A DNA stretch of 39,997 nucleotides from Candidatus Terrybacteria bacterium RIFCSPHIGHO2_01_FULL_48_17. GTDB lineage: Bacteria > Patescibacteriota > Minisyncoccia > Terrybacterales > 2-01-FULL-58-14. Shown here piece after piece: positions 10,639 through 11,275 of this stretch. The stretch is taken from positions 37,297 through 77,293 of the forward strand of contig MHSS01000001.1 of NCBI GenBank assembly GCA_001822835.1, given 5' to 3'. Below the pieces are notes generated by a model that searched no databases, was not told the DNA's origin, and worked only from the letters and a program-made list of their open reading frames with translations. The translations under genes were made by a program, and so were the position numbers. Each line of letters starts with the position of its first letter. Positions within the stretch are counted from its first letter, which is position 1.

Positions 10639-10682
10639 AATATACTTGAATTTTATTCTGGTAACATTAGTATATAACAAGA

Positions 10683-10756
10683 GGGCGGTTAGCTCAGCTG
10701 GTTAGAGCGTCACATTGACATTGTGAAGGTCAGTGGTTCAAGTCCACTACCGCCCA
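10683..10756 (+). tRNA. tRNA-Val(GAC)
   Basis: GGGCGGT/ACCGCCC acceptor; TCACA-TT GAC AT-TGTGA anticodon arm. Confidence 0.95.
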
Positions 10757-10778
10757 TTGGGCACGTAGCCCAACGGTA

Positions 10779-10798
10779 CCTGCCTACCGGCAGGCAGG
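10779..10798. repeat. 20-nt near-perfect palindrome (REP-like) in the D-loop of the interrupted tRNA
   Basis: CCTGCCTACCGGCAGGCAGG. Confidence 0.8.
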
Positions 10799-10849
10799 GA
10801 GCGCGAAGTCCCGAAAACGCCCGCGAGCTATAATATATTAATATATTAG

Positions 10850-10923
10850 GGATGCGTAGCTCAATTGGTTAGAGCGCCAAGCTTATACCTTGGTGGTTCC
10901 AGGTTCGAGTCCTGGCGCATCCA
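10850..10923 (+). tRNA. tRNA-Ile(TAT), intact, nested inside the interrupted tRNA
   Basis: GGATGCG/CGCATCC acceptor; CCAAG-CT TAT AC-CTTGG anticodon arm; CCAGG-TTCGAGT-CCTGG T arm. Confidence 0.93.
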
Positions 10924-11122
10924 TAAGCGAGTGGTTATGTTTTCGTGATCCCGTTGTCTCGCGGATATAAGATCAAAACACCGACCGGGCAATACGGGAA
11001 CTCGAAAACCTAAGCTCCGCAACTGCATGGGCTCAGCAAGATTTTCGGGACTTATACCTTTGTGGTTCTAGGTTCGAATCCTAGCGTGCCCACCAAAATT
11101 TGGTTATAGTAATAAAAGTTGT

Positions 11123-11194
11123 GCTGGGGTAGCTCAGTGGTAGAGCATCTGCCTGAAGAGCAGAGGGTCGTCGGTTCGATCCCGACCCCCAGCA
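11123..11194 (+). tRNA. tRNA-Phe(GAA)
   Basis: GCTGGGG/CCCCAGC acceptor; TCTGC-CT GAA GA-GCAGA. Confidence 0.95.
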
Positions 11195-11201
11195 TACGTT
11201 G

Positions 11202-11224
11202 AAAGCCGCCGTTTGGCGGCTTTT
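11202..11224. terminator. Bidirectional terminator
   Basis: AAAGCCGCC/GGCGGCTTTT. Confidence 0.8.
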
Positions 11225-11275
11225 ATGTTTTCAGGTGTTATCCGCAACTTAATTGTTCTTACGCAATCTGCCTTA

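Follow-up and report, generated by a model that had tools for sequence, protein, structure and literature searches.

Positions 10759 to 11095 of the 39,997-nt stretch of DNA analysed here (the window), in the middle of a Val-Ile-Phe tRNA gene cluster, hold a tRNA-Ile(UAU) gene within which a second, intact tRNA-Ile(UAU) gene is nested. The host genome is bacterial, as judged from its FtsH and IF-2 genes; the ORFs neighbouring the cluster encode a pseudouridine synthase and a phosphatase, and none adjoining the locus encodes an integrase. From 5′ to 3′, the features are:

10683-10756, plus strand: tRNA-Val(GAC), the first gene of the cluster (ARAGORN; Rfam 71.2 bits), ending 2 nt ahead of the outer tRNA
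10759-10778, plus strand: positions 1-21 of the outer tRNA-Ile(UAU), with the acceptor 5′ strand, the D-stem 5′ strand GCCC and the D-loop to GGTA (in-silico removal of inserts)
10779-10798, no strand: near-perfect 20-bp palindrome CCTGCCTACCGGCAGGCAGG between tRNA positions 21 and 22 (empty site in the sister strain L235; repeat family)
10799-10808, plus strand: outer tRNA positions 22-31, with the D-stem 3′ strand GAGC and the anticodon-stem 5′ strand CGAAG (sequence, in-silico removal)
10806-10817, plus strand: left arm of a 12-bp inverted repeat (repeat search), its core TCCCGAAAA at 10809-10817 within the insert
10829-10834, plus strand: TATAAT hexamer, a -10-like box only, 15 nt upstream of the inner tRNA (sequence)
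10850-10923, plus strand: inner, intact tRNA-Ile(UAU) (ARAGORN; Rfam 74 bits), with no second tRNA-Ile(tat) call in the genome, identical in L235
10924-11041, plus strand: insert tail containing a long, imperfectly paired hairpin (arms 10935-10954 and 10994-11013; fold, repeat search)
11042-11053, plus strand: right arm of the 12-bp inverted repeat (repeat search), its core TTTTCGGGA at 11042-11050 within the insert, unchanged in the sister strain
11051-11095, plus strand: outer tRNA positions 32-76, with the anticodon loop CTTATAC, the stem strand CTTTG, the T arm, the acceptor 3′ strand and an encoded CCA (sequence, in-silico removal)
11122-11195, plus strand: tRNA-Phe(GAA), the last gene of the cluster (ARAGORN, Rfam)
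11200-11225, plus strand: terminator-like hairpin followed by a T run, at the end of the cluster (promoter/terminator scan)

On the intact locus, the inner gene is the sole tRNA-Ile(tat) that ARAGORN and Rfam report. When both inserts (10779-10798 and 10809-11050) are cut out in silico, ARAGORN calls a 75-nt outer tRNA-Ile(tat) with its CCA, and removal of either insert alone yields no call of the outer tRNA. The full cloverleaf with anticodon TAT described in the first-pass annotation is thus borne out by ARAGORN, but with two flaws that had gone unmentioned, one D-stem mismatch (GCCC versus GAGC; C-A) and, within the anticodon stem, one G-U pair. The same annotation correctly placed a complete tRNA with the same anticodon within the 242-nt insert, on which ARAGORN and Rfam agree, and a perfect 12-bp inverted repeat at the junction. 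The two tRNAs are 79.7% identical and, as it also described, their acceptor and T stems are written in different letters with pairing kept in both. Such paired differences imply that the outer gene was formerly a working tRNA, and to this extent the proposed structural constraint on it stands; present function does not follow from them, and the outer gene is presumably non-functional now. The promoter scan listed no site for the insert at the TATAAT hexamer, which has no matching -35 box.

The arrangement recurs in independent data. Unitigs from four public runs of four studies (one of these runs may be the source sample of the window's assembly) cover all junctions with no differences; record 11 of X2 spans 10704-11091, record 4 of X1 spans 10710-10884 and record 30 of X4 spans 10895-11091. 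A metagenome scan with a 19-mer across the right junction gave five matches, of which four (L231-L234) were set aside as coding sequences without relation to the locus, leaving as the only homolog L235, an independent metagenome contig with the order Val, outer 5′ half, insert, inner tRNA, tail, outer 3′ half, Phe. L235 lacks the 20-mer: in this comparison of a filled with an empty site, the latter represented by one assembled contig, GGTA runs uninterrupted into GAGC, and the window is exactly 20 bp longer without a target duplication. Because L235 is nested yet free of the 20-mer, the 20-mer and the 242-nt insert are independent DNA events. Its outer gene is a flawless cloverleaf (D stem GCTC, anticodon stem CTTGG, no encoded CCA), compared with which that of the window has decayed by the C-A mismatch and the G-U pair; the damage lies in the D and anticodon arms, and neither strain has a flaw in the acceptor stem or T arm. 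Window and L235 differ at 3 of 72 outer positions and at 13 of 127 tail positions, too few for a statistical test. The 13 tail substitutions, which are those of a second strain found as a unitig in runs X1 and X3, include one fully compensatory pair, four changes that keep pairing and one that breaks it. The inverted repeat shows no change between the two and is one pair longer (13 bp) in L235.

The 20-bp palindrome, which the first-pass annotation removed together with the larger insert, proved to be not an intron but a member of a very widespread family of palindromic repeats. With up to two mismatches it occurs in 220 of the 401 genomes of the class, in as many as 41 copies per genome, and the reversed pattern, scanned as a control, gave 0 in every genome listed. 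Seven of the 31 sampled palindrome sites lie in a tRNA D-loop. The exact 27-mer composed of GTA, the palindrome and GAGC, at the same D-loop site, was found in 118 DNA stretches from many lineages of Patescibacteria and from Omnitrophota. The repeat resembles REP elements in its many copies in many genomes and in its presence or absence at an otherwise identical site. No transposase could be tied to it: the single PF01797 gene of the genome (G000:C9:31416-32114), the candidate for a cognate RAYT/Y1 transposase, is flanked by a different palindrome.

The palindrome-tagged loci read for comparison (84 tagged sites in 80 loci) share a common organization. At 62 of the 84 sites, an intact tRNA, for the most part of matching kind, comes after a tagged piece of a tRNA, with either a GIY-YIG ORF (40 sites) or a short spacer (22 sites) between them; in 44 of 70 cases the acceptor strand of the fragment equals that of the next tRNA. 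The remaining sites comprise six flagged as nested by script (L124 and L146 among these flags being without confirmation by eye), three otherwise complete tRNAs carrying the palindrome and 13 of other classes. The GIY-YIG ORF, present at 46 of the 84 sites, is about 80 aa long and consists of the bare catalytic domain; two representatives match Pfam PF01541 with 53 and 57 bits. Inspection by eye identified at least five nested cases elsewhere, L090 (Phe), L110 (Thr), L139 (Asn), L107 (Met) and L071 (Asn), the last with a GIY-YIG ORF within. The outer genes of L090, L110 and L139 cannot decode because their anticodon loop or stem is destroyed, and the repeat that brackets the insert differs in sequence from case to case. 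Intact partners accompany further tagged copies: L094 and L100 each adjoin one of their own kind, and the contig of L140 also bears an intact tRNA-Asn (L075).

A separate observation concerns Omnitrophota, in which the D-loop of tRNA-Asn contains a group I-like intron whose splicing in silico takes out the palindrome and restores the tRNA. The D-loop introns of L138 and L237 score 14.8 and 18 bits, respectively, with RF00028, below threshold. Where L237 and L089 end in the terminal G, L138 has A. The complete genome behind L138 has no tRNA-Asn gene other than the tagged locus, and since a group I-like RNA can, in silico, remove the palindrome from it, a tagged gene is not always dead.

The ends of the 242-bp insert of the window form terminal inverted repeats such as characterize MITEs (a 9-bp core, or 12 bp with flanking bases, 100% complementary), and the 12-bp repeat marks the boundary of the tRNA-bearing cassette. 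The junctions show no direct repeat that would represent a target-site duplication, the right end has only one 20-nt match elsewhere in the genome, and the tail has no match in 60 relatives. Neither in nor beside the insert is there a GIY-YIG ORF; a profile built from 36 related ORFs found only two, both elsewhere in the genome. A GIY-YIG remnant was considered and rejected, as the overall best tblastn match (E 0.005) lies over tRNA-Phe and the best in the 242-nt insert has an E of about 0.1, and the tail, translated in six frames, is riddled with stops. With ORF and remnant both absent, the link of the insert to the GIY-YIG cassettes is one of analogy. Two further candidates were dropped: homology of the flanks of the inner tRNA with those in G001, a genome of the same family, is not significant (alignment score 32; the best shuffle reached 34), and leader-trailer repeats are not general to tRNAs of the inner type, three relatives having no repeat longer than 7. 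Separately, a T-loop/acceptor-like string of 22 nt lies 46 nt after the tRNA-Ile of G001 (18/22 identical, E 0.26), a hint, at this level of similarity, that nesting may be older.

Taken together, we favour, with a probability of roughly 0.7, the reading that the locus is a displaced tRNA gene that holds its own replacement and was later struck by a mobile palindrome. The palindrome marks displaced tRNA copies across phyla, so the locus is most likely a relic of mobile elements and not a case of new splicing. The first event would have been the entry, between positions 31 and 32, of a cassette of about 240 bp with a complete tRNA-Ile(UAU) and 9-12 bp inverted repeat ends; the outer copy, by then displaced, would afterwards have received the 20-bp palindromic element precisely between its positions 21 and 22. 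The working gene would be the inner tRNA, presumably freed from the cluster transcript by RNase P and 3′-end enzymes, with the outer halves most likely a relic from which no mature tRNA is made. On this view, a tRNA-bearing cassette that has entered a resident tRNA gene and has not been resolved would give the nested form, and recombination between the repeated 3′ parts would then give the commoner form, a 5′ fragment with an intact tRNA. Both the direction and the mechanism of cassette insertion are postulated here, and the GIY-YIG protein may have a role in the replacement. Against this reading count the outer halves, still nearly perfect in both strains, the inverted repeat, which has no differences between the strains and gains a pair in L235, and the presence of an RtcB RNA ligase gene. 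The differing repeats of the nested cases could also reflect selection on structure, and not the ends of an element.

A broader possibility, which we consider rather unlikely, is an active, phylum-spanning system of tRNA gene replacement in ultra-small bacteria, in which hairpin-seeking palindromes and GIY-YIG/tRNA cassettes would disable the resident gene and install a new copy, the acceptor and T arms of the shell with the bracketing helix would act as an RNA processing platform for the nested tRNA, and a ribozyme, where there is one as in the D-loop intron of Omnitrophota tRNA-Asn, would remove the palindrome from the RNA.

It is also conceivable, if unlikely, that the outer halves persist because they serve as a tRNA-like scaffold that does not decode. 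Their acceptor and T arms, with the anticodon stem lengthened by the inverted repeat, would fold around the inner tRNA, so that RNase P and the 3′-end enzymes could still punctuate the Val-Ile-Phe transcript and free the inner tRNA cleanly. The 337-nt precursor is unusually stable (-129 kcal/mol, z = -4.07; none of 100 shuffles equally stable), and its minimum-energy fold pairs the outer halves with each other and the inverted repeat as well. A scaffold fits the perfect acceptor stem and T arm beside the damaged D and anticodon arms, the conserved or extended repeat that directly abuts the anticodon stem, and four other nested loci that keep the outer acceptor/T-arm pair together with a bracketing helix of different sequence. 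The comparison, however, covers two strains, with outer substitutions counted over too few sites to test; 62 of the 84 tagged copies lack any 3′ half, so that such a scaffold is not generally needed, and in G001 no clear outer halves surround this tRNA-Ile.

The relation to G001 bears equally on the direction of events. The inner tRNA-Ile(UAU) is 97.3% identical to the tRNA-Ile(tat) of G001, and the best match of the outer tRNA, at 86.3%, is in a genome of another family; because the inner copy is lineage-typical and the outer is not, either of them may have been the resident and the other the arrival. These identities, with the CCA encoded in the outer gene and in none of the Val, inner Ile and Phe genes, would suit an inner tRNA that is the old resident with its flanks, the foreign outer halves having come by recombination with a mobile element bearing tRNA-Ile. 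Nesting nevertheless requires the inner segment to have been inserted in the outer gene, as a single crossover would give side-by-side hybrids; the outer gene occupies the operon slot between Val and Phe, 2 nt after Val, and that of L235 has no CCA. Such a reversal appears quite improbable.

The first-pass annotation had proposed either an unrecognised splicing or processing route or a tRNA-targeting element carrying a replacement. By the former, both inserts would be cut and joined out, for instance by an endonuclease and RtcB, to give two tRNA-Ile(UAU) from one precursor. The complete cloverleaf, anticodon loop and CCA obtained in silico are in its favour, as are the RtcB gene of the genome (PF01139, 558 bits, G000:C2:24697-25983), a weak result because this ligase is common in bacteria, and the Omnitrophota D-loop intron. 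RF00028, which gives 60.5 bits on an example of a bacterial group I tRNA intron (L073), has no match at E up to 10 over 10650-11250. In bacterial group I tRNA introns, the exon before the intron ends in U and the intron itself in G; here the base ahead of the large insert is G (10808) and the last base of that insert A (11050), its junctions reading G|T and A|C, and the corresponding two bases for the small insert are A and G. If the large boundary is moved by one base, U precedes the insert but C ends it. By inspection, no bulge-helix-bulge is present at the junctions: instead of two 3-nt bulges around a 4-bp helix, the fold stacks the repeat helix on the anticodon stem and leaves one bulge, of 7 nt, at the 3′ side. 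The tRNA-splicing endonuclease profile PF01974 has no match in this 98.68% complete genome, and in the control it matched four archaea. Ends made by RNase P and RNase Z are not known to be joined by RtcB. What would be gained from a second tRNA with the same anticodon is not obvious, the strains differ in the presence of the 20-mer, as fits DNA insertion, and the tagged copy is truncated in most relatives.

The annotation was accordingly right that the junctions resemble neither group I introns nor archaeal bulge-helix-bulge motifs, but a new splicing route finds no support in these searches, and we regard removal at RNA as very unlikely. Its second proposal comes close to the evidence, with the corrections that the two inserts are independent, that the 20-mer belongs to a repeat family and is no intron, and that the 12-bp repeat delimits the cassette with the tRNA. 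Some joints among the unitigs of the four runs skip from 10803-10805 to 11126-11130 with other letters in between, and are read as palindrome-tagged loci of other organisms and not as a spliced or empty form; neither 10808 to 11051 nor 10778 to 10799 is among the joints listed, which is not evidence of absence. Six RNA or possibly-RNA runs contained a fraction of 0.04-0.05 of the sampled words and are uninformative. Groundwater and soil runs indicate the habitat of the organism.

Finally, tRNA genes and palindromes are repeats that confuse assemblies, and several contigs in the palindrome scan end there, but the unitigs across all junctions and the same order of parts in the independently assembled L235 leave practically no room for a chimera of two tRNA-Ile genes.

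A palindrome-tagged tRNA next to an intact one, often with a GIY-YIG ORF, is apparently a widespread and undescribed arrangement in Patescibacteria and Omnitrophota. A full-text literature search gave no description of the palindrome or of the arrangement, titles retrieved for REP elements and RAYT transposases of these phyla included none of relevance, and the main text of two Omnitrophota genome papers mentions neither tRNA introns nor palindromes. Although tRNA genes are among the most conserved genes, they appear here as hot spots of a specific traffic, involving one 20-bp palindrome at one D-loop position in ultra-small bacteria from two or more phyla; the usual companions of the palindrome are a bare GIY-YIG gene and an intact tRNA, in most cases one of matching kind. 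The window, with its nested tRNA, may preserve a rare unresolved intermediate that illustrates how such replacement happens. Finders of tRNA genes miss or mis-call these loci, which would affect completeness estimates and inferences on codon reading for Patescibacteria and Omnitrophota. The loci also offer material on the targeting of RNA genes by homing nucleases, on the choice of hairpin loops by palindromes and on the rescue of damaged genes by introns, and a replacement system, if real, would allow fast turnover of tRNA sequences, for example under tRNA-cutting toxins.

Comparison with known systems places the locus between several of them. With bacterial group I introns of the anticodon loop it shares an insert of a few hundred nucleotides in the anticodon arm of a tRNA, but it has no ribozyme core, no U before or G at the end of the insert, and a different site, 31/32. 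In the split tRNAs of Nanoarchaeum, complementary stretches flank the halves. Archaeal tRNA genes disrupted by bulge-helix-bulge introns at non-canonical sites are described in one report (PMC3978253). The window resembles these archaeal genes in its D-loop and anticodon-arm inserts and in complementary stretches that could join the halves; it differs in being bacterial, in having no endonuclease gene and no bulge-helix-bulge, and in the whole tRNA contained in the insert.

REP elements and the palindromic elements of Rickettsia are palindromes that insert into genes for RNAs or proteins. The 20-mer is likewise short, strain-variable and, as in REP elements with their RAYT, present in many copies per genome, but it departs from them in that the same 20 bases recur in different phyla at a single defined position of tRNA genes. 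Integrative elements in tRNA genes duplicate the 3′ part, encode an integrase and restore the gene; the likeness lies in a mobile insertion that leaves a partial copy and a working tRNA gene, but here no integrase gene is adjacent, and what is displaced is mostly the 5′ part of the gene or else a shell that encloses a whole new tRNA. A last parallel is provided by SegB of phage T4, a free-standing GIY-YIG homing endonuclease encoded among tRNA genes whose spread carries neighbouring tRNA genes along, as stated in two reports (PMC2330249, PMC13096335). The related loci recall it by the GIY-YIG ORF between the tagged fragment and the intact tRNA. They differ from it in that the window has no GIY-YIG ORF, the proteins elsewhere are of about 80 aa, the hosts are cellular and not phages, and the resident tRNA is left behind as a tagged fragment or shell.

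The nested tRNA-Ile locus lies on contig C1 of its genome (865,335 bases in 16 contigs, 98.68% complete), in a window of bacterial gene content (FtsH, IF-2, pseudouridine synthase, OMP decarboxylase). The tRNA cluster that holds it comprises the following features:

10683-10756, + strand: tRNA-Val(GAC), first in the cluster (ARAGORN, Rfam)
10759-11095, + strand: nested Ile locus, in the middle of the cluster, between Val and Phe
10850-10923, + strand: inner tRNA-Ile(UAU), the sole tRNA seen at the Ile locus by ARAGORN and Rfam (74 bits)
11122-11195, + strand: tRNA-Phe(GAA) (ARAGORN, Rfam)
11200-11225: terminator-like hairpin after tRNA-Phe

The first-pass annotation had described a tRNA-Ile(UAU) split by a 20-nt and a 242-nt insert, the larger one containing a complete tRNA with the same anticodon, and this description matches the window sequence: both programs call the inner gene, and in silico removal of 10779-10798 together with 10809-11050 produces an ARAGORN call of a 75-nt tRNA-Ile(tat) with CCA, a call not obtained when a script removed one insert alone. 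The perfect 12-bp inverted repeat bounding the larger insert is likewise present (10806-10817 and 11042-11053). The outer cloverleaf, 79.7% identical to the inner tRNA, is imperfect at two places, with a single mismatch in the D stem (GCCC versus GAGC) and a single G-U pair in the anticodon stem. The nested structure is real: unitigs from four public DNA runs of four studies (the assembly itself may derive from one of these runs) cover all junctions without difference, one unitig spanning 10704-11091, and the same arrangement occurs in L235, an independently assembled metagenome contig of a sister strain. An exact second copy (20-23 nt) of the insert's right end, GCTCAGCAAGATTTTCGGGACTT (11031-11053), lies between rpsG and fusA in this genome (C2:105146-105168).

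We consider it likely, with a probability of roughly 0.7, that a resident tRNA-Ile gene received a repeat-bounded cassette with a complete tRNA-Ile and, after it, a palindromic repeat, such that the inner gene would be functional and the outer halves would be left as a relic. Among the tRNAs called in the whole genome, only two carry a CAU anticodon and only one is tRNA-Ile(UAU); therefore, decoding of AUA probably depends on the inner tRNA. The order of events follows from L235, in which Val, Phe and the inner Ile gene match the window fully or almost so, and the tail of the insert (10924-11041) differs by 13 substitutions, position for position those in the second strain's unitig from runs X1 and X3. 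This contig lacks exactly the 20 bases of the D-loop insert (GGTA joined to GAGC, with no duplication and unambiguous boundaries) and is nested nonetheless; therefore, the nested insertion came first and the palindrome was gained or lost afterwards. The earlier proposal of a tRNA-targeting element that brings a replacement is partly supported, in that the cassette carries a complete tRNA-Ile, but the 20-mer belongs to a separate, later event.

That the outer halves are retained as a tRNA-like processing scaffold appears unlikely, although some observations point to constraint. The outer gene of L235 is a flawless cloverleaf without the D-stem mismatch, the inverted repeat is unchanged between the strains and one pair longer in L235, and the genome encodes RtcB. 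Between the strains, 3 of 72 outer positions and 13 of 127 tail positions are changed, hand counts too small for a test. The precursor fold, a check proposed in the first-pass annotation, is far better than that of shuffled sequences (z = -4.07, 0 of 100 as good), with the outer halves predicted to pair together and the repeat arms with each other. Against function of the outer gene stand its D-stem mismatch in the window, the lack of a GIY-YIG remnant and of splicing features (below), the presence or absence of the palindrome between strains and the state of tagged copies in relatives, which are truncated or lie close to an intact partner (L094, L100, L140). Less probable again is a reversed direction of replacement. 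The inner tRNA is lineage-typical (97.3% identical to a tRNA of G001, a genome of the same family), whereas the best match of the outer gene reaches 86.3% and G001 has no clear outer halves; therefore, the resident and the incoming copy are assigned tentatively. In G001, the sequence CGAATCCTGACAGGCCCACCA (L005:1619-1640), 46 nt after tRNA-Ile(tat), agrees at 18 of 22 positions (E 0.26) with the part of the outer gene that covers the T-loop, the 3' acceptor strand and CCA, which hints weakly that the two genera may have diverged after the nesting arose. True splicing yielding two tRNAs, compatible with the in silico product, is very improbable: the junctions do misfit the group I rule (U...G), as had been noted, no group I core was found in 10650-11250 (RF00028), inspection revealed no bulge-helix-bulge motif, again in line with the first reading, and no splicing endonuclease gene was found in the 98.68% complete genome. 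The RNA runs contained a fraction of 0.04-0.05 of the words sampled. An assembly artefact, the remaining explanation, is contradicted by the unitigs and by L235 and has a negligible chance of being correct.

The 20-nt D-loop insert, CCTGCCTACCGGCAGGCAGG, is a mobile palindrome, a single mismatch short of perfect. With up to two mismatches, it occurs in 220 of the 401 genomes of the class, at a maximum of 41 copies per genome, and the reversed pattern, searched as a control, gave 0 in every listed genome. Of 31 sites in 30 loci from the class-wide search, 7 are in tRNA D-loops and several others occupy the loop of a different hairpin. In the window's own genome, the 20-mer is perfect between smpB and the next gene (C2:52903-52922) and diverged at other sites, one of which has arms of the AAATCCAAAATCC type and is placed inside an apparent coding region (C14:13067-13095). 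Short TTTAGAG/TTTGGA-like repeats flank other copies and, in L235, also make up the spacer that precedes tRNA-Phe. The sole Y1-transposase (RAYT-like) gene of the genome (233 aa, in the region C9:31380-32160) is flanked by another palindrome, TATGGTAGTCCGAC(C/T)ACCATAG, with an in-frame copy within its own coding sequence.

The exact 27-mer GTA+palindrome+GAGC was found in 118 stretches of a one-genome-per-species collection. These belong to many lineages of Patescibacteria and to Omnitrophota, where one of the genomes is complete; a few more come from records labelled otherwise. One contig labelled Nanoarchaeia (L148) has two palindrome-tagged tRNA fragments by tRNA-Gly, tRNA-Leu and tRNA-Pro.

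Classification of 84 sites in 80 of the 118 stretches
40 sites: tagged 5' fragment, GIY-YIG ORF, intact tRNA
22 sites: tagged fragment, short spacer, intact tRNA
6 sites: flagged as nested
4 sites: fragment and GIY-YIG ORF, next tRNA uncalled (in L072 and L073, that tRNA contains a group I intron)
4 sites: cut by contig end
4 sites: no downstream tRNA called
3 sites: otherwise complete tRNA
1 site: other class

Among the tRNAs that come next, Asn is the commonest (30 cases), ahead of Thr (14), Phe (11) and Lys (7), with 8 of other kinds; in 44 of 70 cases, the acceptor strand of this tRNA is that of the fragment, the homology of which stops at variable points within the anticodon arm. The ORFs are of about 80 aa, and two representatives match Pfam GIY-YIG (53 and 57 bits). 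The mirror order, with the intact tRNA first and a tagged partial or decayed copy directly after, occurs at Val(cac) in L062 and Asn in L100. Standard group I introns reside in the tRNA-Asn anticodon loop of two Patescibacteria genomes (L072; L073:324-544, RF00028 score 60.5 bits), directly 3' of a palindrome-tagged fragment and GIY-YIG ORF. The window's genome has two GIY-YIG mini-ORFs (C5:29481-29935 and C8:11782-12245), both adjoining tRNAs and neither at the nested Ile locus, the insert of which has no GIY-YIG remnant; one lies between a decayed tRNA-Trp copy that holds a hairpin replacement, with a diverged palindrome upstream, and the intact tRNA-Trp that comes after it, and the other follows tRNA-Gln.

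By eye, the window architecture is repeated in L090 (Phe), L110 (Thr), L139 (Asn), L107 (Met) and L071 (Asn), each with a tagged outer 5' part, an intact inner tRNA and an outer 3' part, the acceptor strand of which pairs with the 5' part; L124 and L146, flagged as nested by script, were unconfirmed by eye. Inverted repeats of 8-15 bp, different in sequence at each locus, bracket the inner tRNA in L090, L110, L139 and L107. L090, L110 and L139 have lost the anticodon loop or stem of the outer gene, and these shells therefore cannot decode. In L071, a GIY-YIG ORF adjoins the inner tRNA, which suggests that the nuclease gene and the tRNA can move jointly as a cassette. In L107 (minus strand), the D-loop copy is not the only such insert in the outer gene: another palindrome-like sequence, CCTTGCCTGACGGCAGGCAGG, sits where the T stem and acceptor stem meet.

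Literature searches on tRNA palindromes and GIY-YIG in CPR, on GIY-YIG at tRNA genes of Patescibacteria and Omnitrophota and on introns (group I and tRNA) in CPR yielded no description of such loci; full-text search with the palindrome string returned 0 papers, and for CPR nothing relevant was found on REP elements or RAYT. Known systems taken for comparison were SegB, REP/RAYT elements, Rickettsia palindromic elements, split tRNAs and integrative elements. Neither tRNA introns nor palindromes are treated in the main text of two papers on Omnitrophota genomes; any tRNA tables in their supplements could bear on the missing tRNA-Asn. In the complete Omnitrophota genome of L138, Rfam finds 44 tRNAs and ARAGORN assigns every amino acid but Asn; the sole Asn-like sequences are at the palindrome-tagged locus. 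At this locus and two others, the D-loop of tRNA-Asn(GUU) is interrupted between positions 20 and 21 by a group I-like intron:

L138:1100-1450 (G401:C1:1401098-1401446); L089; L237:1400-1850

At L138 and L089, tRNA-Asn positions 1-20 are followed by an A and the palindrome, then by a duplicate of positions 22-32, ~230 nt of structured RNA and positions 21-76. This RNA is also present at L237, where the palindrome is absent (GTTGGT/AAATTTTGCCAAC...AAATTTG/AGAGC). An internal guide pairs with the exon end, with a G-U pair at the cut, and covaries with the D-loop (GCCAAC with GTTGGT, GCCGAC with GTCGGT), and by inspection the helices of L138 and L089 differ by paired changes. The terminal intron base is the usual G in L237 and L089 and A in L138; in silico removal gives tRNA-Asn(gtt) in all three. 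No such ribozyme is present in the window. A palindrome-tagged tRNA gene can, on this model, remain functional where a putative ribozyme removes the tag. The D-loop introns score 14.8 and 18 bits with the Rfam group I model (threshold 50), and to our knowledge the known bacterial tRNA group I introns are all located in anticodon loops.
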